Positions 23,691-35,468 are shown, counted from the first letter of the stretch. The stretch is 64,000 nt of DNA from Myxococcota bacterium (GCA_965140415.1 OZ223209.1:352001-416000); one strand, 5' to 3'. Notes: generated from the sequence alone by a model not told the origin. Translations and numbers: made by a program.

Positions 23691-25031
23691 TTAGATCACG
23701 TCCGTGCCTTTTTTGATAATCCACAGATCACCGACCCGACGGTAGAAGTCCTCCGGTTCCAACTCGGTTTTCATCACGCTGTTGAAGAAATTGTATTTGG
23801 ACAGGTCGTTGTCGATGATACGATCCTTCTGTTCCTCATAATATGGCGTGCCGGGCATGGGGGTGAGAATCGTATATCCTGCATACACTACACGATGTGA
23901 AGACGCATACTCTTGTAACGCGCTGAAGTCGTCTTCGGTGTAATCGGGCGGCACCACGTAATTGCCACGAATCATGATGCCGTTCTGGTGGAAAATCTCG
24001 ATGGCTTCCCGGATGAATTCGGCTTGTGAAGATTTGTTGTAGTGTCGCAGTTCCTCGTTGCGGAAGGACTCGAAACCGCAGATCACGACCTTCAAGCCAC
24101 CCTTGGCCAGTTTCTCTACCAGTTTCGGGTGCTTGGCCACAGCGTCCACGCGCAGATCCATAATGAAGAATTTGCGGATGCCTTCTTCGTCGATGCGGTC
24201 GAAAAGCTTGGAAAGAAACTCCTCACCTACCATGGAGTTGGCGTCGGCAAAACGTACTACCGGGTAGTCGTCGCAGCGTTTCAATTCCTCGATGACGCTT
24301 TCCACCTCGCGCTGGCGATACGCGCCGCCATACTGCGGCCAGATCGAACAGAAAGTACAGCGATAGGGACAGCCCAGCGATGTAAACACGTAGGTCGCCG
24401 GATCGGGTGATTTGCCGACTTTATAGGTTTCCCGCCAACGCGCCAACAGTCGCCGGTCGGGCATCAGGAAATCTTTCGTCGCCGACAGGCATTCACGTTC
24501 AGCCGGACCGGTGAAACGATACTCTTGGCCGTCGTTCAAATAGATGCCGCCGATTTGCTGCAAAGGCCGTCCCTGCTCCAACGCCTGCACGACTTCGCGG
24601 AAAACGTGCGCCGATTCACCTGGACAGACAATGTCCACCGGTTTTCCGGCGAAATCCTGCGGACACAGTGTCGCATGTAACCCACCGGCAACCGTTACGA
24701 TTTCCGGGTTGACCTGCTTGGCGACACGCAAAATCTCCATGCCGTCGTAGAATTCGGAAGCGATTACGGTAGTGGCGACGATATCCGGTTGTTCTCTCTC
24801 GATAATTTCGCGCACGAAGGCTGCAAGTGGCGGCGTATCCGGGTTCAGGTCGTATTCGCCCTTGGTTTCGATAAACACCACATCGTGATCTTTGACCGCC
24901 TCAGCGACTGTCAATAACCCGAGTGGAGGACCGATCAGCTTTTTATGGATAAAAGGTCGAGCCTGTTCGCTTGCGTGTTCCAGAATTCCGTTGTGCGGGG
25001 AACGCGGCGTGTTGATCAGCAGAATTTTCAT
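23691..25031 (-). CDS. B12-binding radical SAM enzyme
   Basis: N-terminal cobalamin-binding domain (PPLGLL, AGGLHAT) and TSLGCPYRCTFC (CxxxCxxC), GFES, ILTPMPGT. Confidence 0.92.
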   Translation of the reverse strand: MKILLINTPRSPHNGILEHASEQARPFIHKKLIGPPLGLLTVAEAVKDHDVVFIETKGEYDLNPDTPPLAAFVREIIEREQPDIVATTVIASEFYDGMEILRVAKQVNPEIVTVAGGLHATLCPQDFAGKPVDIVCPGESAHVFREVVQALEQGRPLQQIGGIYLNDGQEYRFTGPAERECLSATKDFLMPDRRLLARWRETYKVGKSPDPATYVFTSLGCPYRCTFCSIWPQYGGAYRQREVESVIEELKRCDDYPVVRFADANSMVGEEFLSKLFDRIDEEGIRKFFIMDLRVDAVAKHPKLVEKLAKGGLKVVICGFESFRNEELRHYNKSSQAEFIREAIEIFHQNGIMIRGNYVVPPDYTEDDFSALQEYASSHRVVYAGYTILTPMPGTPYYEEQKDRIIDNDLSKYNFFNSVMKTELEPEDFYRRVGDLWIIKKGTDVI

Positions 25032-25660
25032 GATACGCGACGTTTTCCAACCTGAGTGTGCGCCTGTTTGCGAATCAAGGTCTCCGCCGTCTTCAATAGT
25101 TCCTTGCGATCCACGATCAGATCCACTAAGCCGATATTGGCGGCTTCATCCGCCAGCACCGTGCGGCCCGACAAAATCAGCTCCGTTGCTCGCGATGCCC
25201 CCAAAAGCTCCGTCAGACGCACGACGCCGCCGCAACCGGGCATCAAATTGAAACTGACTTCGGGTAAAGAGAACACGGCCCGGCGTGCCGCGATGCGAAA
25301 ATCGCAGGCAAGCGCCATTTCCAGACCCACTCCCAAGCAGCAGCCACCAATAGCTGCCACCACTGGGAAAGGGGCATCTTCGAAGGCTTTGAAATTGAGG
25401 ATGTTCTCTTCCAGCCGTTCTTCCGGGTTTTCGATCAAAGGCTCTTCACTGTCGAACATCGCCTGTAATTCCGGTACGTTGGCGCCACTGCTAAAGTGCC
25501 GCCCTGCACCGTGGATGATCAAACCCTGTACCTGTAGAGAAGGCAGAACCTCTTTACGAAATTCGGTAATCTTGGCGAAAAACGCCAGATCCATTTCATT
25601 TCTGGGTGGCCGATCCAGTACCAGATAGCCGATCCCGTCTTTTTCCGTTAGACGTAGCAT
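25028..25660 (-). CDS. Enoyl-CoA hydratase/isomerase (crotonase) family
   Basis: HFSSGAN, GCCLGVGLEMALACDFRIA, SLPEV...LMPG.GG. Confidence 0.9.
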   Translation of the reverse strand: MLRLTEKDGIGYLVLDRPPRNEMDLAFFAKITEFRKEVLPSLQVQGLIIHGAGRHFSSGANVPELQAMFDSEEPLIENPEERLEENILNFKAFEDAPFPVVAAIGGCCLGVGLEMALACDFRIAARRAVFSLPEVSFNLMPGCGGVVRLTELLGASRATELILSGRTVLADEAANIGLVDLIVDRKELLKTAETLIRKQAHTQVGKRRVS

Positions 25661-26082
25661 TCCGTTTCCTGAACCACTACCAGGCCATAGGCCTGCGTCC
25701 GTGTATGCGACACACTGATGTGAAGTCTGTCGATTGTTTTTGCGGCCTGCTTGGCGGGCAGGCCCGAAAGCGTAACAATGCGTGGTGCGCCCTTCTCCGA
25801 GTGACCGAGTTCGATATCCCGTTCCGACAAAGCCGGAGAATGCGCCTCATCACCCAAATAACATAACACTGCGCGTTTCAGCGCTACAGCACCCGCCAGG
25901 CTCTGCATCGAGCGCCCGGCATATTCATCTCGTTCACGCTTGCTGAAAGAAGAGAATAGCACCTCCTCACGACGCTTGCGTAACGGATCGATTTCCACTA
26001 CTTCCAGATACGTGACGATCTGTCCGGTTTCGGCTACCGAAGAGATTTCATCGTTGAAGGTCTGTGCCGCTTTTTCTACCAT
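25648..26082 (-). CDS. AcpS-like protein with degenerate catalytic motifs
   Basis: FSKRER, SLAGAVALKRAV, DIEL....GAP, LHISVSHT..AYG match the AcpS fold; GxD is replaced by YLE and KEA by KRA. Confidence 0.7.
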   Translation of the reverse strand: MVEKAAQTFNDEISSVAETGQIVTYLEVVEIDPLRKRREEVLFSSFSKRERDEYAGRSMQSLAGAVALKRAVLCYLGDEAHSPALSERDIELGHSEKGAPRIVTLSGLPAKQAAKTIDRLHISVSHTRTQAYGLVVVQETECYV

Positions 26083-26098
26083 ATTTGCCCGATTCCAC

Positions 26099-26812
26099 TT
26101 AACGATGGCGACGCGCCATTTCACAAAACAGCGACGTTTCCTCTCGCAGGGCCTCATCTTTGGGCATACGTTCTCCATTGTGAATTGCCGTCATGATCGC
26201 ACGAATCAACTCCGGGGGACGTCCTACGGTCAGGCTGCGTAAAAAAGTCAGACCTTCTTTTTCCAAGTCCTTGGGTGCGGTAGTGCAATCCACCAGACCC
26301 ATTTCAAAAGCTTCCATGCCGGAAATCAGTTTCCCGGACAGAATCAGTGACAAGGCCCGCCCGCGCCCCATTACCTGCTGCGCACGCACAGTGCCTCCGA
26401 AACCGGGTAACAGGTCGCGTTCCGATTCGGGCAGACCCAATAGCGCCGTCGTCGTGGCGTACCGGAAATGACAGGCCAGAGCCAACTCCAAGCCAGCCCC
26501 CATGCAACTTCCTGAAATCAAGGCAATAACTGGAACGGTAGCCGTGGAAATCATGTTCAGCAGGGTTTTACCTTCGTCCAACAAAGCCGCAAAACCGGTG
26601 GCGTCCACCTGCTCGCGTAATTGCTTCAAATCCGCCCCGGCGCAGAAATGTCTCCCCTTGCCTTTAACGATCACCGCTTTGATCGTCGGTTCGTTCAGGA
26701 AATCATGCAATTCCTGCCGATCGGCGAACACCGGTTCCGTCAAGGTGTTATAGGGAGGATTGCTCAATTCAATCCATCCTATTTTATCTTTGATGGTGTA
26801 GGTCAGTTGCAA
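26099..26812 (-). CDS. Enoyl-CoA hydratase/isomerase (crotonase) family
   Basis: NPPYN, HFCAGADL, GSCMGAGLELALACHFR, GLPE...LLPGFGG. Confidence 0.9.
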   Translation of the reverse strand: MQLTYTIKDKIGWIELSNPPYNTLTEPVFADRQELHDFLNEPTIKAVIVKGKGRHFCAGADLKQLREQVDATGFAALLDEGKTLLNMISTATVPVIALISGSCMGAGLELALACHFRYATTTALLGLPESERDLLPGFGGTVRAQQVMGRGRALSLILSGKLISGMEAFEMGLVDCTTAPKDLEKEGLTFLRSLTVGRPPELIRAIMTAIHNGERMPKDEALREETSLFCEMARRHR

Positions 26813-26873
26813 TGCTGACTCCTTCCCGTTGTATCAGGATTGAAACCGCGTACCGGGCCACAACCGAAGAAAC

Positions 26874-27962
26874 TCATTCCATCGCTTTGAAATACGACAA
26901 TCCACTTCTCTCGAAAGCGAGTTGCAAGCGCCGATCCAGACCGGAGGCCTGCTCTTGTGACAACAGCGACAAAAACTCCTGTTCCGCCTGATAGACGGAA
27001 TCCAGGACCAGCTCAAGACCGTTCTCGTCGATCCATTTCCGTTGCAGCACGCGGCGGCAACTCTGTACGACAAGATCCCGCAGGTCTTCCGCCCAATGTG
27101 GTGGTTCGCTTTCTACATCCATCTCCAACCACGGCAATGGTTCACCACAAAGTAAACCATCTCTATTCTTTGTACCACCTTTACCGCGTCTTACCAACTC
27201 CGAAAGCAATTTTAATAGCGGTTCGTAGTCTTTACGCTCCGTTTCCGGCATACGCTCCAGGTAATTTCCGACCGCAGGCAATAGGACATCCAACCCGATT
27301 GCATCCATCATCGACAACTGCCCGGCAGGGATCAGCGGATGTCGGCTGGCCGATTCCACCCGAGTGGCGGGGATACCCAATAGCAGAAGACGGCAGACTT
27401 CCGCTTGAATCGGCAATAGCAGACGATTGGCGGTAAAAGCGTTTTCCTCTTTCTGCATCACGGGTTTCAGTTCGTAACGACTGAGAAAATCGAGCAGGCG
27501 CGTGTGTTTATCGGAAGGATAACCATCGGGTATTATCACTTCCACCAGGGTCGTCAACTGCACCGGATAAAAGAAGTGCAACGCGGCCAGATCCGGATAC
27601 AAATCATCCGGCAGGATGGAACTGGAATTGCTGAACAACAGGGTTTGGCGATCCAATCGCGACATGACCGAGTCGATTGCACCCTGCTTTACCGGCAAGG
27701 ATTCCGCTACGCTCTCCAATACGATATCCGGCGGTTGCGTCAGAGGATCGCCATAGCGCAGAAAACGGACGGCTGGAAGCGGTTGTGACCCATCGGAAAG
27801 ACGAGCCATGCGTTTTTGAATCTTGCTGATGCGTTTTTTGAGTTTACTCAAGCGCTCGTCATCGGTGGACATCCACCAGACGTGACACCCGCGTTGCAGA
27901 AAGTACTCCCCTATGTTTTGCGCCATTTTTCCCGAACCCAGAATCAGTAGCCGTTCGGTCAC
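26874..27962 (-). CDS. 3-hydroxyacyl-CoA dehydrogenase family protein
   Basis: LGSGKMA Rossmann motif, ESVAE...K, SNSSSI, LHFFYPV...LVEV, F.ANRLL, MDAIGLD; GTG overlaps the fabD stop. Confidence 0.85.
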   Translation of the reverse strand: MTERLLILGSGKMAQNIGEYFLQRGCHVWWMSTDDERLSKLKKRISKIQKRMARLSDGSQPLPAVRFLRYGDPLTQPPDIVLESVAESLPVKQGAIDSVMSRLDRQTLLFSNSSSILPDDLYPDLAALHFFYPVQLTTLVEVIIPDGYPSDKHTRLLDFLSRYELKPVMQKEENAFTANRLLLPIQAEVCRLLLLGIPATRVESASRHPLIPAGQLSMMDAIGLDVLLPAVGNYLERMPETERKDYEPLLKLLSELVRRGKGGTKNRDGLLCGEPLPWLEMDVESEPPHWAEDLRDLVVQSCRRVLQRKWIDENGLELVLDSVYQAEQEFLSLLSQEQASGLDRRLQLAFERSGLSYFKAME

Positions 27963-28891
27963 AGCCCCAACTCCTTTGTAAATTTCTTTCCATTGATATA
28001 CTTCATGGAAAAGGGGAAAAAGCGGCCATTCTGCGTCAGGGAAACTCCCGGTCCGCATTCGATTACGCGGGTAATGTTCTGGGCGTGCAAGGTCTCTACT
28101 ACATGTTGCCAGTGGATGGGTGTACTCAGGTTGGCGGCGGTAAAGCTTTTCAGCGCATCGGCATCTTGCATCAATACCTGGTCGATGGAGGAAACAACAG
28201 GGATTGAAGGATCCTGCCAGGCCAACGTATCTAAAAAGTTAGAGAATCGTACACTGGCCTCGCGCAAAAAGCCGGGATGGTGATAGGGAATGGAGACGTG
28301 CAGTTTTTCCGCCTTCAACGCATCGCGGCGCATGGCCTGTTGCAGAAAATGCTCGACATCCTCGATTTTTCCGGAAACAACCTTGCAGATATCGTTATTG
28401 GAATTGACCTGTACCACCGAGGCGAAACGCTTGTCCGAGAGCAGTTCATCGACATCCGGCTGGGTCAGTCCCACCACGATTCCCATACCGAAACGACCTT
28501 CGCCGCAGACCTCGTGCATGTCGGTATAAGCTTGTTGCAGGATTCTCAATCCATCCGAATAAGACAAGGCCCCGCTAACACATAAGGCGGCGTAGATTCC
28601 GAAACTGTAACCAGCCAACAGATCGACGGTGATCCCTCGCCTGCTCAACACGTTGAACACACCTACACTGAACGAATAGGTAAAGAACTGGCGTTGCGCT
28701 TCATTCAGTTCGTCAATACGCCCCGATTCAAGTCGTTTCGCCAGGTTCTGGCCGATCACATCACCGGCTTCTTCCAAAAGCGGTTTCAATTCCGTTTTCT
28801 GCGCGCGGTAGAAATCGGCTTCGCCTCCATACAGGCGCACTCCGACTCCGGGAAAAGCCGCCGCTGTTTTATGGTTGCCGGTATCCGTCAT
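27959..28891 (-). CDS. fabD: ACP S-acyl(malonyl)transferase, FabD-like
   Basis: FPGVG, AGYSFG nucleophile, VNSN...VVSG, PIHWQ, IECGPG..L. Confidence 0.8.
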   Translation of the reverse strand: MTDTGNHKTAAAFPGVGVRLYGGEADFYRAQKTELKPLLEEAGDVIGQNLAKRLESGRIDELNEAQRQFFTYSFSVGVFNVLSRRGITVDLLAGYSFGIYAALCVSGALSYSDGLRILQQAYTDMHEVCGEGRFGMGIVVGLTQPDVDELLSDKRFASVVQVNSNNDICKVVSGKIEDVEHFLQQAMRRDALKAEKLHVSIPYHHPGFLREASVRFSNFLDTLAWQDPSIPVVSSIDQVLMQDADALKSFTAANLSTPIHWQHVVETLHAQNITRVIECGPGVSLTQNGRFFPFSMKYINGKKFTKELGL

Positions 28892-29999
28892 GAATCTTGA
28901 ATATGTACCCCGCCTGCATGAACTTACTGACTTCCGTAACGAAACTCGCCACCCGATCTCCTACCGACAACGCTTCCTCGCGCACGATCCGATCCAGGCA
29001 GATCAGCGCCATGGGCGGACCGCTGTAGCCGAATTCGTGTAATTTCGTGTAGAAACGTTTTTTCGGTAAACCGATTGCCTCGAACTCATCCATTACCGAT
29101 TCCACAATATGCTTGGAAGGCAGGTTGACCTGGAACAGCTTGATGTTCCCGATGTCCGTATTTCCCGCCTGTAGCATTCGCTTGAAACCCTTGAAGAAAA
29201 TGGAACCGTCCTTTTCGTTGAAAATTTCCGTAGATAAGGCATTACGGAAATTCTGGCGCAGATGATGTGCCGCCTGCTCGAATTCCTCCACCGGATTCAT
29301 CCAGTAGGCCGGTCGATAATTGTACATCAACGACGGGCGCTTGCCACCCACCGATTCGATATAACTCTGCTCCAACTCGAATCCCTTGGAGCGCTGGATA
29401 TCATCGGTCAACAGGATCGCCCCTGCGCCGTCACACAGAAACCAGCGTAAAAACAACGACTCGCGGTCCAGTTTCTGCTGATTGTAGTACTCGGCCCGAA
29501 GTTCGGAGGAACTGACACTGGAGGAAAGCACTAGCGCGGTGTGGTTCTGGCCGCTGCGAATTAATTGGTGGGCCAGATACAGCGCCTTGTATGCGGAAGT
29601 ACAATTGGCGTGGATGGAGAACTCGCTACAGGCTTCGATGCCCAGTTCTTCCTGGATGCGAGCGGAAGCGGTCGGCATCTGATCCTGATGAGCGGATCCG
29701 TAGCAGATCAAATCCACGTCCTCGGCTTGCATCCCCGCCGCGTTCAACGCCGCCTGGGCCGCTTTGACCGACATGCTGATGTTGTCGTCGGTGAAGCTGC
29801 GTGTTTCCGGGTCCAGTGCGTAATGATACTGTTTGATATCCAATAGTTCCCGCATGACTTCATGGGTGCGGGCGATCCAGCGTTGGATAGCCGGGGGCGC
29901 TTCCGTCAGTTTGCCCAGCACCGCTTCGATGCCATCGAAAGGAACCGGCTCACCGGGAAGATAACTGCCACTGCCTGCTATGTATACCGAGGAACTCAT
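28869..29999 (-). CDS. KAS III-like (StlD/DarB/FabH-type) condensing enzyme
   Basis: VYIAGSGSYLPGEPV, catalytic HANCTS, FLRWFLCDGAGA. Confidence 0.8.
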   Translation of the reverse strand: MSSSVYIAGSGSYLPGEPVPFDGIEAVLGKLTEAPPAIQRWIARTHEVMRELLDIKQYHYALDPETRSFTDDNISMSVKAAQAALNAAGMQAEDVDLICYGSAHQDQMPTASARIQEELGIEACSEFSIHANCTSAYKALYLAHQLIRSGQNHTALVLSSSVSSSELRAEYYNQQKLDRESLFLRWFLCDGAGAILLTDDIQRSKGFELEQSYIESVGGKRPSLMYNYRPAYWMNPVEEFEQAAHHLRQNFRNALSTEIFNEKDGSIFFKGFKRMLQAGNTDIGNIKLFQVNLPSKHIVESVMDEFEAIGLPKKRFYTKLHEFGYSGPPMALICLDRIVREEALSVGDRVASFVTEVSKFMQAGYIFKIHDGYRQP

Positions 30000-30011
30000 T
30001 GACTTCCTGTT

Positions 30012-31238
30012 CTAACGTCTTGCTTCATGCCGGGAAAAGACCAGCACGCCATTGTGACCGCCGAAAGCGAACGAATTGGAAAGCACGTGCTGCAAGTTCG
30101 CCGCCCGTGGTGCGTCGCATACGAAATCCAGTTCAAAGCCATCGTCCGGTTGATGTAGATGCCAGGTGGGCGGAATCACTTGTTCCTGCAAGACTTTTAC
30201 GCAGATCACCGCTTCGACTCCCGCCGCCGCACTCAAGCAGTGCCCGGTCAGCGATTTCGTGGAAGAAACCGGCGGACTGTTTTTCTCTTCTGCATAAAGA
30301 TGAGTGATCGCCTGTACTTCGTACAAATCATTCAGGCGCGTGGAGGTGCCATGCGCATTGATGTAGTCGATCTGTCCCGGCTGCAACCCGGCCTGTTCGA
30401 TTGCCAATCGCATCGCCCGCGCCATGCTCTTGCCCTCGGGTTCGGGCGAAATAATGTTGTAGCTTTCCGAACACAACCCCGGCCTGGACAACTCTGCGTG
30501 AATGCGTGCGCCGCGCTTTTGAGCGTGTTCCAATGATTCCAGCACCAGCATGCCGGCACCTTCTCCCAAGACGAAACCGGTGCGCGTTTTATCGAAAGGA
30601 CGCGAGGCGCTTTGCATGTGTTCCACATCTTCTGATAACGCCATCAACGAGCAGAAACCTTGTACATCCAGATAACTTATGGCGCTGTCCGCTGCGCCGC
30701 TGACGACGATGTCGCATTGCCCGGAAGTGATCAGACCGTGGGCGGCATGCAGGGCGTATGCACCGGACGAACAGGCGGTGCTCACCACAAACGACGGTCC
30801 CCTGAACTTGTGACTCAAGCTGATCCAGGCCGCAGGTGCACTGGCCATATTCTTTAAAATGCGATGAGGGTCCGATTCCTCGGTTTGCGGAGCATAGCCG
30901 GTGCCGGTACCGCCGACGATAACTCCGATTCGGTCAGTATCGACGTCTTCCGGGTTGATTCCCGCGTCTTCAATCGCCATTTGAGCGCAGGTAACGGCAA
31001 TTTTCGTGCCGCGCGTCATCTGACTGCGCTTGCGTTTTTTAATCGATCGACCGAATAGCTCTTCGGCCTGTTCCGGTAATTCAATACCGAAAGGGGAAGG
31101 CAGATCCTGTGGATCGAACAGTTTAAACCGGCGGACCGGACTATTCCCCTGTAATAATCCGTTCCAAGTGGTTTGCAGATCCAGTCCCAGCCCGGTCATC
31201 AGTCCCAGGCCAGTCACCGCAACACGTGAGTGGGTCAT
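30012..31238 (-). CDS. fabF: Beta-ketoacyl-ACP synthase II
   Basis: VAVTGLG, STACSSG, SRPFD..R.GFVLGEG, INAHGTST..ND, KSLTGH, SNSFAFGGHN (Cys-His-His intact). Confidence 0.93.
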   Translation of the reverse strand: MTHSRVAVTGLGLMTGLGLDLQTTWNGLLQGNSPVRRFKLFDPQDLPSPFGIELPEQAEELFGRSIKKRKRSQMTRGTKIAVTCAQMAIEDAGINPEDVDTDRIGVIVGGTGTGYAPQTEESDPHRILKNMASAPAAWISLSHKFRGPSFVVSTACSSGAYALHAAHGLITSGQCDIVVSGAADSAISYLDVQGFCSLMALSEDVEHMQSASRPFDKTRTGFVLGEGAGMLVLESLEHAQKRGARIHAELSRPGLCSESYNIISPEPEGKSMARAMRLAIEQAGLQPGQIDYINAHGTSTRLNDLYEVQAITHLYAEEKNSPPVSSTKSLTGHCLSAAAGVEAVICVKVLQEQVIPPTWHLHQPDDGFELDFVCDAPRAANLQHVLSNSFAFGGHNGVLVFSRHEARR

Positions 31239-31327
31239 TTGTCCTGTGTCCTGTTCAAACGAAAAACCCGCCGAATCGATATTTACCGATCAACGGACAA
31301 CATTGGGGGCCACGGAATTATGAGTAT

Positions 31328-31735
31328 TCATTCCGTCCCGAACACGTACACGATTACTGCGATTTCCTTTGATGGTAATTCATCTTGAAGAATTTTGAAA
31401 ACGCTTTTTGTAATTCCACTTTGTTTTTCGAACTCTGGTGAAAATTCGATTGTCTGTAAGGATTCGTCGTGCTTCGGAAACACCTGAACTTCCAGGAAAT
31501 CATACGACTCACCAAACGACTTAACTAACGCTTCCTTCACACAAAACGCCACACAGAACTTCCAGGCCGCTTCACTGCCGGATTGTATGTATTGGATTTC
31601 CCGGTCGTTGAACAGCAGAGGAAACGGGCGGGAATCTTGCGCTAGAAGTTTTTCGAAACGATCGACGCTTTCTGCATCGATACCACAACGAAGCAGTGGC
31701 TTCGAAGCTTTAAAACTCCATGTTAACGATGTCAT
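31328..31735 (-). CDS. acpS: Holo-ACP synthase (AcpS-type PPTase)
   Basis: CGIDAESVDRF, FNDREI, FCVKEALVKS. Confidence 0.8.
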   Translation of the reverse strand: MTSLTWSFKASKPLLRCGIDAESVDRFEKLLAQDSRPFPLLFNDREIQYIQSGSEAAWKFCVAFCVKEALVKSFGESYDFLEVQVFPKHDESLQTIEFSPEFEKQSGITKSVFKILQDELPSKEIAVIVYVFGTE

Positions 31736-32018
31736 TGCCGTATTTGACGATCTGCAAGGTCATTTCCATCACTTCACCGATCGTGTTGGCAGGTTTGCTC
31801 ATCAGATGTTTTCCAAGGGTTTTCAACTCGATGGTCAATCCGTATTTCTTACGGAAAATTTCCAGCAGAGAAAGCAGCATCAACGAGTCACCCTCTAAAT
31901 CCACGATGATGTCGGTTTGATCGGTAATTTCACTTTTATCGATATCGCATTCTTCCGAAAAGTAATCGAACACAATCTCGCGGATGTCATCCCTGATTTC
32001 TTGCGTGATCGCTTCCAT
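31710..32018 (-). CDS. Acyl carrier protein
   Basis: Acidic ~100-aa protein with DLEGDSLMLL phosphopantetheine site; AGGAAGG before ATG 32018 (start uncertain). Confidence 0.85.
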   Translation of the reverse strand: MEAITQEIRDDIREIVFDYFSEECDIDKSEITDQTDIIVDLEGDSLMLLSLLEIFRKKYGLTIELKTLGKHLMSKPANTIGEVMEMTLQIVKYGNDIVNMEF

Positions 32019-32414: not shown

Positions 32415-33449
32415 TCAGGCACCGTCATTGGCGGCGCTTGCCTGCTCGTTACCGGAACCGTTTTCGCCGTTTTCGTCCAGTTCCACCTGGCTGAGTTCAC
32501 CCATGGTCATACCGAGTTTGGACAACAACACCAGTCCCAGAATTGTAATGGGAATGATTTGCGTAGCGTGAATCGCAACCGACCAGGCCAGTGCCGTCGT
32601 GTTGGCGATGCCGAAAATAGCCAGCGTTTTTACGCAGGCGAACTGAAACACGCCGATATAGCTGGGACTGCTCGGAATCAGTGAAGACAGGTTCACCACG
32701 ACCAAAGCTAATAACGCCGCCTGCAATGGAACGGAAATCCCGAATGCATACAGGTAGTTGATGTACACCATCACTTCGCAGATCCACACCAGGAAACTGA
32801 TCAGGAAGGAAATAACAAAATCCTTGGGTTGATGCAGCAGGGAAAGCCCCAATACGAAACGATTTAAAATATGCAGAATCTTAGCGGAAATAGCAGCAGG
32901 GAAAATCCCCACCAGCTTTTCGGTCAGATTCATGACCCGCTGCCGCTGATAGGCCAGCGCGAACAGGAAAAGCAAACCACCGACGAATAGCAGTGACGAC
33001 ACCCAGGCCATGTATCGCAGCCAGGCGCGATCGACATCGGCGGCGAACATCAACACCACCAGGATCATGACGATGGTCAAGCCGTCGAACAGGCGTTCCA
33101 ATACCACCGAGGCAAAGGCGGAACTGCGGCTCATGCCTTCGCTTTTTCCGGTGACGTAAGCGCGGACGATCTCTCCCAACCGTGCGGGTAGCAGATTGTT
33201 GGCCATGTAGCCGATTACGATATAGGAAAACAGCGCCGGCATACGGATGTTCTTGACCGAGCGCAACATGAAGCGCCAGCGCAGGGTACGAAAGAAGAAG
33301 GAAATCAGGTAAAAGAAAACACCCGGCAGGATGTACATGGGGCTAACGTGCTTGAAAGCCTGAACGAAATCGTTCAGGTTGAAATTCCAGACGGCCAGCG
33401 TCAGAAACAGGGCCGAAACGAGAATGGCGAGTATCGTACGTGCTTTCAT
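32415..33449 (-). CDS. Lysylphosphatidylglycerol-synthase-TM (UPF0104) flippase-like membrane protein
   Basis: RTLRW, GYMANNLLPARLGE..R, SVVLERLFD, PSSPSYIGVFQ. Confidence 0.88.
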   Translation of the reverse strand: MKARTILAILVSALFLTLAVWNFNLNDFVQAFKHVSPMYILPGVFFYLISFFFRTLRWRFMLRSVKNIRMPALFSYIVIGYMANNLLPARLGEIVRAYVTGKSEGMSRSSAFASVVLERLFDGLTIVMILVVLMFAADVDRAWLRYMAWVSSLLFVGGLLFLFALAYQRQRVMNLTEKLVGIFPAAISAKILHILNRFVLGLSLLHQPKDFVISFLISFLVWICEVMVYINYLYAFGISVPLQAALLALVVVNLSSLIPSSPSYIGVFQFACVKTLAIFGIANTTALAWSVAIHATQIIPITILGLVLLSKLGMTMGELSQVELDENGENGSGNEQASAANDGA

Positions 33450-33581
33450 TACAGCCTCACGGATTGAACTAGGCCGCCATAAATAACAATCCCCCTAAAA
33501 AAAGTCAATCATTCCTTTTTCAATGGATCGAAATGGGGTGAGTGTATCGCTCGGACAGACAGTGATACCTGATCTACTTGG

Positions 33582-35264
33582 TTACTCCTCGGATTCCCGC
33601 AACTCTTCGCACTCCACCTGTTCGCGCAGATATTCTTCGCGGCCTTCCAGAAAATCCTTCAAGCGACCGATATGAATCAGGAAATCCGAGCGACTGTCGT
33701 TCCTGTCGTTGGGATCGGCGCTGATGGATTCCCATAAGACCTCATCCAGCGCATCCGGCAGGCGGGGCAGACGTGTTTGCCAATAGTCGCTGTCGAGCAT
33801 TTCGCAGATATTCTGCCGAATCTGTTTGCCCAATTCGGGATCGAGTTGCGTGATGTGAATCAGCACGTTGGCCCAGCATTCCGGGTAGCCTTCATCCGGG
33901 CCGATGTCATCGTCGTCATCTACAAGTCCGTTCAGCCACCAATGATCGGAGCGCATGTGGTCTTCGTCGCAGATGTCTTCCGGTTCCGAATCGAAATAGC
34001 AGCCAAGCGTCAGATCCATATCCCAGGGGTAAAACTCCCAGGCGCTTTTTCCCGATTGGTTGGTCTGCCAGGAAAAGTAGAAGTTGTTCGTTGTAGAATC
34101 CGGGTCTTGAATCAGAATTTTTCCGGCCAGATAATTCATGTAGGCACTGACATGCAATAAGGGTCGGGTGCGTGTGGTCACCGTTTCATGGCGGGTTCGG
34201 TCCAATTGATCTGACTCCTCAAAATCCGGCCAGATTGCCGTTTCGATAAACTGAATCAAGTCGGAATAGTCTTCTTCATCTCCGGTTTTTTTGTGGTAAT
34301 ACGTGGGGTATTCGCTTTCATCCGGCATCGGGACAAAGGCTCCGCCTGGATAGTAAATCCCCATTTCATACATGGCGTTGTCCCGGTTGCGGCCATTGGT
34401 TTCCAGGAAGTTTCCGCCGATGCGCTCGATTTCGACCATCAAGCCGTAATAGTCCCCATTGACGTACAATTGCTTGTAGCGGACGCGCGGTGTCGGGATG
34501 CGAGTCAATGCCCGATAGGTATGATAGGACAGGAAACTGCGCATGAAAGTCGGGTCGTCCCAATCCGCTTTGTAATTGATTTTACGAGCGAATCCCGGAT
34601 GGTCCACATCTTCCGGGAACCGAATGCGGAAGCTGCTTTTGGGGAAAGACCGGGAAAAGCTACCCAGAATGCGGATTTGTTCGCCGTTATCATAACGAAC
34701 GCCATCTACAGTAAGGACACAGTCGTAAAAAGTTTCAATACCACTGGATGCACCATCCAACAGCGCCTGAAAGTCCGCCGGGTCCATCTCCAAATCCGCG
34801 CGTCCCACCAGCGCGGGCATACAGAAACTTTCAATGCAATGCTCCCCGCTGCGGCACTGCGCATCCGCAGAACAGGCTCCGCATTGTCCATTCGCCCGGC
34901 AACCTTCCAACTCCCGGCATTGCGCCGCTGTTGTACAAGCTCCACATCGATTTCCCAGAAATCCCTGTCCGGGCAGGCAGTCACGAGGACCGGTGGGCGT
35001 TAAAATGGGGTCGTCATCATAAAATGGTTCAACCGCCTCTGGCCATTCAACCTCTTGAATTTCTTTAATATCGGCATCTTCATCGCCATCGGTGTGGTTG
35101 TTGCGGTCACCATCGGTAGAATCATCCAGGTCGCCATCGCTACTTTCTGGTTGATCTGAATCACCGTTTGTATTCGTTTCGTCTGAATTGCACCCGGCAA
35201 ATAGGAACGCCGAAGCGAGCAGCAACAGTATACAAATCAGAGACAGCATATGCTTGAATGCCAT
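33582..35264 (-). CDS. CotH-family kinase lipoprotein
   Basis: FAG-C lipobox, DGD linker, short Cys-rich module, FPKSSFRIRF, LYVNGDYYGL...E, NNFYF, PWDMDLTLG. Confidence 0.85.
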   Translation of the reverse strand: MAFKHMLSLICILLLLASAFLFAGCNSDETNTNGDSDQPESSDGDLDDSTDGDRNNHTDGDEDADIKEIQEVEWPEAVEPFYDDDPILTPTGPRDCLPGQGFLGNRCGACTTAAQCRELEGCRANGQCGACSADAQCRSGEHCIESFCMPALVGRADLEMDPADFQALLDGASSGIETFYDCVLTVDGVRYDNGEQIRILGSFSRSFPKSSFRIRFPEDVDHPGFARKINYKADWDDPTFMRSFLSYHTYRALTRIPTPRVRYKQLYVNGDYYGLMVEIERIGGNFLETNGRNRDNAMYEMGIYYPGGAFVPMPDESEYPTYYHKKTGDEEDYSDLIQFIETAIWPDFEESDQLDRTRHETVTTRTRPLLHVSAYMNYLAGKILIQDPDSTTNNFYFSWQTNQSGKSAWEFYPWDMDLTLGCYFDSEPEDICDEDHMRSDHWWLNGLVDDDDDIGPDEGYPECWANVLIHITQLDPELGKQIRQNICEMLDSDYWQTRLPRLPDALDEVLWESISADPNDRNDSRSDFLIHIGRLKDFLEGREEYLREQVECEELRESEE

Positions 35265-35468
35265 GATGAAAGTCCTTACCTGCACATGGGGTTTGCATGG
35301 AATACCACGCTTTAGTTTGTTTGTCATGCTACGAGCAGAACCGAGCAACTGTCAAGCCGGTTGTCACATTCGTTTCGCTTTTCGGGATATCTGCACTTTT
35401 GCTTGCCCGCACCGAAGCGATTTGATAGCATGGCATGGTGGATTGAAAACTTTGCAAGGGGTCACGTC

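Follow-up and report, generated by a model that had tools for sequence, protein, structure and literature searches.

The closest described systems to the gene cluster reported here are the dialkylresorcinol pathways encoded by the dar and stl genes. In these pathways DarB or StlD joins two thioesters, one 3-oxoacyl and one 2-enoyl, to form a cyclohexanedione, and DarA or StlC aromatises this ring (PMC13748660). In flexirubin-type pigment clusters darA and darB make the dialkylresorcinol part (PMC3992019), and the dar cluster of Azoarcus comprises, besides darA and darB, an acyl carrier protein (ACP, darC), a ketosynthase (KS, darJ) and a BtrH-like protein (darE) (PMC3949708). Here we describe ten genes at positions 23691-32018 of a 64,000-nucleotide stretch of DNA from a Myxococcota bacterium (GCA_965140415.1 OZ223209.1:352001-416000), called the window below. 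An initial annotation, made from the sequence alone, had concluded that these genes fit no recognised class of pathway. This conclusion was not supported, the nearest class being the dar branch: the 3-oxoacyl-ACP synthase III (KAS III)-like enzyme of the cluster, KS3, is sister to DarB/StlD, its relatives lie in flexirubin-type clusters, and the dar cluster also contains an ACP, a ketosynthase and a BtrH-like protein. Judged by its genes, the cluster is an orphan related to the dar pathway but kept outside it by defined features. Compared with DarABC/StlCDE, among which we count the dar genes present in flexirubin and arcuflavin clusters, it has no DarA/StlC aromatase, all ten genes being assigned otherwise; its KS3 scores far under the family cut-offs, with the Glu, His and Asn positions replaced; and it adds an acyltransferase lacking the malonyl-binding Arg, a hydroxyacyl dehydrogenase, two crotonases, two AcpS-like genes and a B12-binding radical S-adenosylmethionine (SAM) enzyme. 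The ten open reading frames (ORFs) share one orientation and each assignment is backed by Pfam and NCBIfam models:

31710-32018, minus strand: ACP, dedicated acyl carrier protein of 102 aa (PP-binding, 33 bits), with its phosphopantetheine serine in a DSL motif
31328-31735, minus strand: PPT1, AcpS-type phosphopantetheinyl transferase (PF01648, ACPS, 47.3 bits)
30012-31238, minus strand: KSII, FabF-type elongating ketosynthase (fabF, 404.6 bits; Cys-His-His)
28869-29999, minus strand: KS3, thiolase-fold KAS III-like enzyme (StlD/DarB subfamily 129 bits, FabH 81 bits)
27959-28891, minus strand: AT, FabD-fold acyltransferase (fabD, 144 bits)
26874-28058, minus strand: HCDH, oxidoreductase of the 3-hydroxyacyl-CoA dehydrogenase family (3HCDH_N 68 bits, 3HCDH 35 bits)
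26099-26812, minus strand: ECH1, crotonase-fold enoyl hydratase/dehydratase with both catalytic Glu (ECH_1, 124 bits)
25648-26178, minus strand: PPT2, degenerate AcpS-like protein (C-terminal part of AcpS, 33 bits, NCBIfam)
25028-25660, minus strand: ECH2, short crotonase-fold protein of 210 aa with both catalytic Glu (ECH_1, 114.5 bits)
23691-25031, minus strand: rSAM, class B (B12-binding) radical SAM enzyme (B12-binding and Radical_SAM domains; CxxxCxxC)

The gene order and coordinates are those given by the initial annotation, with which the Pfam and NCBIfam matches agree. It had counted five overlapping junctions; the longest-ORF coordinates give six (ACP/PPT1, KS3/AT, AT/HCDH, ECH1/PPT2, PPT2/ECH2 and ECH2/rSAM). 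The overlaps of 100 nt and 80 nt are probably over-long start calls, and the true start of PPT2 probably lies near 26082. For the ACP, the most likely start codon is the ATG at 32018, which is preceded by a purine-rich ribosome-binding site of the AGGAAGG type. No short-chain dehydrogenase/reductase (SDR), hotdog or enoyl-reductase domain was detected with Pfam in the ten genes, in line with the claim that FabG, FabZ and FabI are absent from the cluster.

KS3 is the signature enzyme of the cluster. The closest solved protein by sequence is StlD (5gk0), which aligns over the full length with an E-value of 8e-19. An AlphaFold2 model of KS3 was built from a 66-row alignment (predicted local distance difference test, pLDDT, 95.3; predicted template-modelling score, pTM, 0.94) and compared to solved structures using Foldseek. 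The top matches were the StlD chains (TM 0.85, E 8e-32), the next AbyA1 (TM 0.77), while FabH, PqsD, CorB, MxnB, OleA and BioZ ranged from about 0.68 to 0.75. Phylogeny was assessed with a quick maximum-likelihood tree of 66 representatives, after 10 of 76 rows with apparently frameshifted or truncated C-terminal regions had been dropped. In this tree the KS3 clade (support 97) is sister to a StlD/DarB-like clade (support 100), and the two together split from the other KAS III proteins with a Shimodaira-Hasegawa-like (SH-aLRT) support of 96. By fold comparison and tree, KS3 thus has the StlD-type fold and shares common ancestry with StlD and DarB. Its FLRW..DGAGA motif and its length of about 375 aa are likewise common to both. 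The names available for it in the ESM Atlas are the generic 'KAS III'. The position of the nucleophilic Cys126 of StlD is occupied by Cys133, which is kept in 120 of 120 close homologues. The KS3 clade is further characterised by an HxNC motif that invariably surrounds the Cys, by two adjacent histidines (His245-His246) and by a Gly-Tyr pair, His245-His246 and Tyr325 being invariant; these motifs persist in relatives of 32-58% identity, but His297 does not.

The same gene set recurs in other genomes, which places the cluster far beyond chance. More than 100 KS3 homologues of 65-73% identity were found in a large protein collection; the few that carry a name are labelled Calditrichaceae, Chitinivibrionales, Thermodesulfobacteriota and Pseudomonadota. 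A scan of species-representative genomes returned 49 loci, 47 of them with a KS3 at 55-66% identity, all in metagenome bins. The two others, at 24-26% identity, were left out: L055 shows the housekeeping order plsX-fabH-fabD-fabG-acpP-fabF, as judged by ORF sizes and tblastn only, and L056 is a lone weak match. The 47 loci are labelled as Bacteroidota-type (34), Desulfocapsaceae (3), Polyangia/Myxococcota/Deltaproteobacteria (3), Fibrobacterota (2), Neomarinimicrobiota (1) and Alphaproteobacteria (1), with 3 unlabelled, so that the gene set spans at least five labelled phyla. Partner genes were counted from the best blastp match among the ORFs of these loci, many of which end at contig edges, and the counts are therefore lower bounds. 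HCDH accompanies KS3 in 42 of the 47 loci, ECH1 and ECH2 in 40 each, KSII in 38, AT in 30, ACP in 29 (46-67% identical), rSAM at 45% identity or more in 25, PPT1 in 6 and PPT2 in 4 (8 by tblastn). None of the six genes flanking the cluster in the window was found at any of the 47 loci. All ten genes stand in the order of the window at L009, L011 and L051, and L008, L012, L013 and L014 keep that order for the genes present or detected. The Bacteroidota-type loci are rearranged as ECH1-ECH2-KS3-(second radical SAM)-HCDH-KSII-ACP-AT, with the orthologous rSAM gene on the other strand. At the Polyangia-labelled locus L010 (13147-21116) the 8 kb downstream contain no detectable crotonase or radical SAM gene, and this locus may be a variant or decayed form.

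Within the phylum of the host, 401 evenly sampled genomes were searched. An orthologue of KS3 (at least 59% identity) is present in the host genome and in 9 of the 19 genomes of one other family, while the search found none in 5 genomes of the host's own family and none in 4 genomes from other families of its order. An orthologue of rSAM occurs in exactly the same 10 of the 401 genomes, and in 8 of the 9 other genomes it lies on one contig with KS3, about 5 kb apart. The conserved co-occurrence that the initial annotation had proposed to look for was thus observed, both in the 47 loci and in this KS3-rSAM pairing. The patchy distribution suggests horizontal spread. Four further genomes of the phylum contain a KS3 paralogue, 40-43% identical, and 2 of the 5 paralogue places examined have the order KSII-ACP-KS3-HCDH-ECH-AT beside a fusion of a ketosynthase and a chain-length factor (KS-CLF). 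The paralogous clade at L075 and L077 sits in its own KS-CLF/KSII/ACP/KS3/HCDH/ECH/AT cluster, which has no orthologous radical SAM gene. It follows that the KS3-centred core predates the ten-gene form. Taken together, the cluster is best explained as a stand-alone, horizontally spread form of a conserved biosynthetic module.

In the Bacteroidota-labelled loci this module is embedded within flexirubin-type pigment clusters. One of its sides is occupied by ACP, KS, CLF, KS-CLF fusion, polysaccharide deacetylase, LolA, LolB2-like, hotdog and thioesterase genes, and the other by GT2-DUF2062 and MMPL exporter genes; these neighbours match the flexirubin cluster content published in PMC3992019. At L048 the match to 'flexirubin LolB2' reaches 74 bits, for a cut-off of 60. 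Over the 47 loci, CLF was counted in 15, deacetylase and LolA in 14 each, LolB2-like and GT2-DUF2062 in 13 each, thioesterase in 29 and hotdog in 23. Two accessory families of B12 radical SAM proteins also accompany the module (27 and 19 of the 47 loci), one of which is near TIGR04072 ('lipid biosynthesis B12/radical SAM'; 315 bits, cut-off 360). The Desulfocapsaceae-labelled L009 encodes, 4 kb from the module, a BtrH-type protein (DarH model 293 bits, cut-off 300), and such a BtrH/DarH-like acyltransferase near the module in some loci is, with the dedicated ACP and the FabF-type ketosynthase corresponding to darC and darJ of Azoarcus (PMC3949708), a further likeness to the dar systems. L009 also holds a CrtI-like desaturase and two further B12 radical SAM genes. 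This flavoprotein of the CrtI/phytoene desaturase family (L009:7110-8597) lies between PPT1 and KSII; it is found likewise in L011 and L012 and is absent in the window. It could be a desaturase or an aromatase for the product.

The remaining enzymes were analysed for conserved active-site residues among their orthologues. KSII scores 390.8 bits against the PRK07314 subfamily, above its cut-off of 387, and stays under the cut-off of the fabF equivalog (493.75); its Cys-His-His motifs are conserved in the best matches from 38 loci. AT aligns over its full length to solved FabD structures and has a Ser96-His204 dyad, whose Ser is kept in 30 of 30 and whose His in 29 of 30 orthologues; its 144 bits on the fabD model (TIGR00128) are below the cut-off of 261. 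In FabD, Arg117 binds the malonyl carboxylate. This position is Ala121 in AT, as in 30 of 30 orthologues, and the FPGQGSQ motif of FabD reads FPGVGVR. By its active-site residues AT is not a malonyl transferase, and the missing Arg suggests that it probably handles non-carboxylated acyl groups, for loading, for CoA/ACP shuttling or for release. Neither the malonyl-binding Arg117 nor the GQGSQ glutamine is thus present in this protein, which the initial annotation had labelled 'FabD-like'. PPT1 exceeds the PF01648 cut-off of 25 bits and conserves the GxD and KEA..K motifs in 6 orthologues. PPT2 has no Pfam match, reaches 29-33 bits on AcpS models over its C-terminal two thirds only, and reads KRA in place of KEA, the Glu being lost; it was rightly described as a degenerate AcpS.

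HCDH conserves, in 42 orthologues, the nucleotide-binding GxGxxG, an NSSS motif and the His...Glu pair of HFF.P...VE. At the positions we take to be those of the hydratase glutamates, both crotonases retain both residues, conserved in 40 orthologues for ECH1. Among solved proteins, ECH2 is nearest to ordinary enoyl-CoA hydratases. Crotonase-fold enzymes can use ACP thioesters, and their possible reactions also include hydrolysis, decarboxylation and ring closure (RpfF, MenB, BadI); by analogy, and speculatively, the second crotonase may do more than dehydrate. rSAM has the features of class B enzymes (PF02310, B12-binding, 54.4 bits; PF04055, Radical_SAM, 66.1 bits; CxxxCxxC). It is under the cut-off of every named subfamily, the best scores being 149 of 650 bits for HpnR and 136 of 481 for BchE, and it reaches 24.8 of 360 on TIGR04072. 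Its nearest solved structure is 9ccb (E 4e-12), an entry cited in a paper on MgmA, reported to be a glutamine C-methyltransferase.

The host genome consists of a single contig (C1) of 5.98 Mb. It contains a dsrA above its cut-off (580.9 bits), so that the host probably reduces sulfite or sulfate and would hence be anaerobic. Genes resembling parts of flexirubin and aryl polyene pathways are dispersed over the contig:

C1:426396-432684, 42-49 kb beyond the cluster: flexirubin/aryl-polyene-type accessory group
C1:993-997 kb: KS-CLF fusion (720 aa), two ACPs, FabA-like and ApeI-like dehydratases
C1:4209753-4211588: ACP and, next after it, a BtrH/DarH-like acyltransferase (DarH model, 226 of 300 bits)
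C1:5317683-5322791: three adjacent B12-binding radical SAM genes, two of them orthologues (42-51%) of the accessory families, with a LolA-like gene nearby
C1 at 5.76 Mb: two KS, GT2 and MMPL genes

The first group comprises an ammonia-lyase-family gene (361 of 700 bits on the FlxA model NF053541, HutH models scoring higher), a YbgC-like thioesterase, a LolA2_flexi-like protein (107 of 125 bits) and a FlxB-like SDR (321 of 340 bits, NF053542). The locus at 993-997 kb is a small aryl-polyene-type polyketide synthase (PKS) locus without the usual export genes. These dispersed genes are no proof of a pathway shared with the cluster. TIGR04556, named 'PKS_assoc' and presumably DarA, a model for which there was no positive control, gave no match in the 401 genomes.

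We tentatively favour, with somewhat less than even confidence, the reading of the module as a DarA-free counterpart of the 'dar' branch of flexirubin/aryl-polyene pathways, joining two chains derived from fatty acids. It is favoured because of the substrate fit, because StlD and DarB are nearest to KS3 and because flexirubin-type clusters harbour the module. KSII, HCDH and the crotonases, operating without an enoyl reductase, would supply both substrate types of a DarB-like enzyme. We infer all of the following steps. PPT1 would activate the ACP, PPT2 being a non-catalytic relative, and the Arg-less AT would move a non-carboxylated acyl group onto or off the carrier. KSII would add one malonyl unit, supplied by the housekeeping FabD, to give a 3-oxoacyl thioester, part of which HCDH and the crotonases would turn into a 2-enoyl thioester; the chemistry would stop there because the cluster has no enoyl reductase. 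KS3 would then join both chains via Cys133, and rSAM would methylate the product, or oxidise or cyclise it without oxygen. The condensed product would most likely be, for example, a cyclohexanedione- or resorcinol-like lipid, and the methylated or cyclised acyl product suggested by the initial annotation is possible. A broader proposal, which we regard as rather doubtful, is that oxygen-avoiding bacteria of several phyla make two-chain resorcinol/cyclohexanedione-type or otherwise ring-closed lipids without DarA, a new thiolase-fold enzyme in which Cys133, His245-His246 and Tyr325 replace Cys-His-Asn joining the chains and the co-inherited B12 radical SAM enzyme carrying out an oxygen-independent aromatisation, cyclisation or C-methylation.

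Several observations weigh against a DarA-free dar module, the main weakness being the rewired active site of KS3. Numbering from the alignment to 5gk0/5gk2, the StlD positions are Cys126, Glu154, His302 and Asn335, whose roles we assign by what is generally known of KAS III enzymes and by how the PDB entry of an H302A mutant is titled. Three of the four are replaced: Glu154 by Ser, so that the Glu of the common GSE motif is lost, His302 by Asn292 and Asn335 by Tyr325, the last two replacements being found in 120 of 120 close homologues each. The chemistry of KS3 may hence differ from that of StlD. KS3 also scores below the StlD/DarB cut-offs, with 129.1 bits for 450 (NF005293) and 101.7 for 550 (DarB, NF053539), and its 129 bits are no better than the 110.9 bits of a FabH-like control on the StlD/DarB model. 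When this model was calibrated on 7 StlD/DarB-like representatives, 5 passed (484-526 bits) and 2 scored 408-445. By these scores KS3 is not to be counted as a member of the DarB/StlD family. Moreover, no aromatase was identified in the module, the role of the radical SAM enzyme is a guess, and HCDH and the crotonases come from families usually acting on CoA rather than ACP thioesters. At L010 the genes from ACP to HCDH are present, but neither ECH nor rSAM could be detected downstream of them. Polyene genes do not adjoin the module in the window genome or in the loci labelled Desulfocapsaceae, Fibrobacterota and Myxococcota; its connection with pigments is drawn from the Bacteroidota-labelled loci and from dispersed genes.

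We considered other functions for the same genes. KSII, HCDH and the crotonases could iterate without enoyl reduction to give a polyenoyl- or hydroxyacyl-ACP, which rSAM would methylate or cyclise, KS3 only priming or releasing the chain. Polyene synthases work by this logic, combining condensation, ketoreduction and dehydration with no enoyl reduction. Most class B radical SAM enzymes are C-methylases, and the nearest solved structure, 9ccb, is the one cited in the MgmA paper. Up to two further B12 radical SAM families lie beside the module, one near TIGR04072, and the Desulfocapsaceae-labelled version holds the CrtI-like desaturase. We nevertheless hold such a polyene or modified fatty-acyl line to be unlikely, although a serious possibility: the module has neither chain-length factor nor hotdog dehydratase, the Bacteroidota-labelled clusters already hold separate KS/CLF polyene machinery, and it would remain unexplained why the StlD-like thiolase-fold enzyme is the most conserved protein and co-occurs with rSAM. 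Some type II polyketide synthases use priming units made of a KAS III, an ACP and an AT homologue, a trio that is present here, and KS3, ACP and AT could accordingly prime an unusual starter for a KS/CLF polyene synthase encoded elsewhere. The paralogous KS3 clusters (40-43%) adjoin KS-CLF fusions in other genomes, and at 993-996 kb the host genome encodes a KS-CLF fusion together with two ACPs. KAS III enzymes, however, need the His and Asn for decarboxylative condensation, and their loss from KS3 argues against a FabH-type reaction and so against decarboxylative priming. The ammonia-lyase-family gene of the host suggests an aromatic starter as in flexirubin, a weak argument since this gene scores higher as a histidine ammonia-lyase, and the strict pairing with the radical SAM enzyme would be left unexplained. 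We consider an initiation module improbable.

We judge it about equally improbable that KS3 is an acyltransferase or esterifying enzyme off-loading the ACP-bound chain or attaching it to an acceptor, the other genes making a hydroxyacyl or enoyl-acyl donor. KAS III-like transferases relying on the Cys only exist as a class, the nucleophilic Cys is the only canonical residue kept in KS3, and the second-best fold match, AbyA1, is a non-FabH condensing enzyme; but no acceptor-forming gene belongs to the ten-gene unit, and the tree groups KS3 with StlD and DarB, which form C-C bonds. That all the proteins come from families of general fatty-acid metabolism would fit a redundant operon for housekeeping fatty-acid synthesis or beta-oxidation with no special product. 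We find this very hard to maintain. A housekeeping fabD (C1:109337, 313 bits, above the cut-off), at least four other FabF-like genes and four other ACPs are present elsewhere in the genome, so that the cluster does not hold the sole fabF, fabD and acp copies. Furthermore, AT is not of the malonyl type, the cluster was not found in the sampled genomes of the host's own family (0/5) and of the other families of its order (0/4) yet occurs in distant phyla, and a catabolic operon would not be expected to include a dedicated phosphopantetheinyl transferase, an ACP and a B12 radical SAM enzyme.

The cluster was also compared with other described systems. Aryl polyene and flexirubin type II PKS systems share with the cluster the use of discrete enzymes on an ACP, and they surround the module in the Bacteroidota-labelled loci, while flexirubin-like genes are dispersed in the host genome. 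They differ in that the ten genes include no CLF, hotdog dehydratase, SDR ketoreductase, LolA, GT2-DUF2062 or exporter, and in that the module is free-standing, both in the window and in 8 loci that bear the labels of other phyla. The candidate ladderane clusters of anammox bacteria (KS, inactive KS and TIGR04072-type radical SAM) are likewise accessory ACP-based acyl pathways combining condensing enzymes, a crotonase and a B12 radical SAM enzyme. In contrast to them, rSAM scores low on TIGR04072, there is no inactive KS partner, and a KS3-type enzyme defines the cluster. The beta-branching cassettes of trans-AT PKS systems, built around an HMG-CoA synthase, also bring together an ACP, a KS, an AT, a thiolase-fold enzyme and two crotonases. 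Here, however, the active-site Cys of KSII is present and conserved, unlike in the Cys-less decarboxylating KS of such cassettes, KS3 reaches about 30 bits on HMG-CoA synthase models (cut-offs 244-360), and both crotonases retain both hydratase Glu. Housekeeping type II fatty-acid synthesis differs by its FabG, FabZ/FabA and FabI types, none of which is found in the cluster, and by having the sole copies of fabD, fabF and acpP. Our literature search found no description of this gene set and no characterised match, and the accessible portions of a 2026 review of B12 radical SAM enzymes (PMC12931638) mention no lipid, fatty acid, acyl carrier or polyketide. With other fab and acp copies in the genome and the gene set conserved, the view of the cluster as a dedicated, self-contained and apparently undescribed pathway is upheld.

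The borders of the cluster were examined with a promoter/terminator scan, which called 4 promoter-like sites for 6.8 expected by chance, a total not above chance. Two sites concern the cluster:

32141-32136, minus strand: TTGACA hexamer about 118 nt upstream of the ACP start, a weak promoter candidate
23579-23551, minus strand: promoter-like TTGACA-17-TACCAT (10 of 12 matches) in front of a yicC-like gene, marking the downstream cluster boundary

The TTGACA reported in front of the cluster does exist, but the hexamer located 17 nt downstream of it matches TATAAT at 3 of 6 positions and the site was not called by the scan. The scan did call the separate promoter said to begin the next operon, which is a housekeeping one (YicC-like, guanylate kinase gmk, RelA/SpoT). 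Directly upstream of the cluster, at 32415-35348 of the window, lie genes for a membrane protein of the LPG_synthase_TM family and a CotH-kinase-family protein, found beside the module in 0 of the 47 loci. Further away, a 784-aa ORF at 15357-17711 matches no Pfam family at E <=0.001.

The compact ten-gene unit, with its own carrier and activating enzyme, suits heterologous expression. It offers two targets for enzymology: an StlD-like enzyme that has lost three of four catalytic residues and is still 55-73% identical across phyla, and a B12 radical SAM enzyme whose substrate appears to be a carrier-bound acyl group. The labels of the carriers include Bacteroidales/Prolixibacteraceae, Desulfocapsaceae, Fibrobacterota, Myxococcota, Neomarinimicrobiota and Calditrichaceae. 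Because the module is common in uncultured bacteria, many of them labelled as anaerobic lineages, its product would count in anoxic habitats as a new, and possibly abundant, lipid or pigment component. Should the broader proposal of ring-closed two-chain lipids made without DarA hold, the products would form an unrecognised class of lipids or pigments of anoxic sediments.

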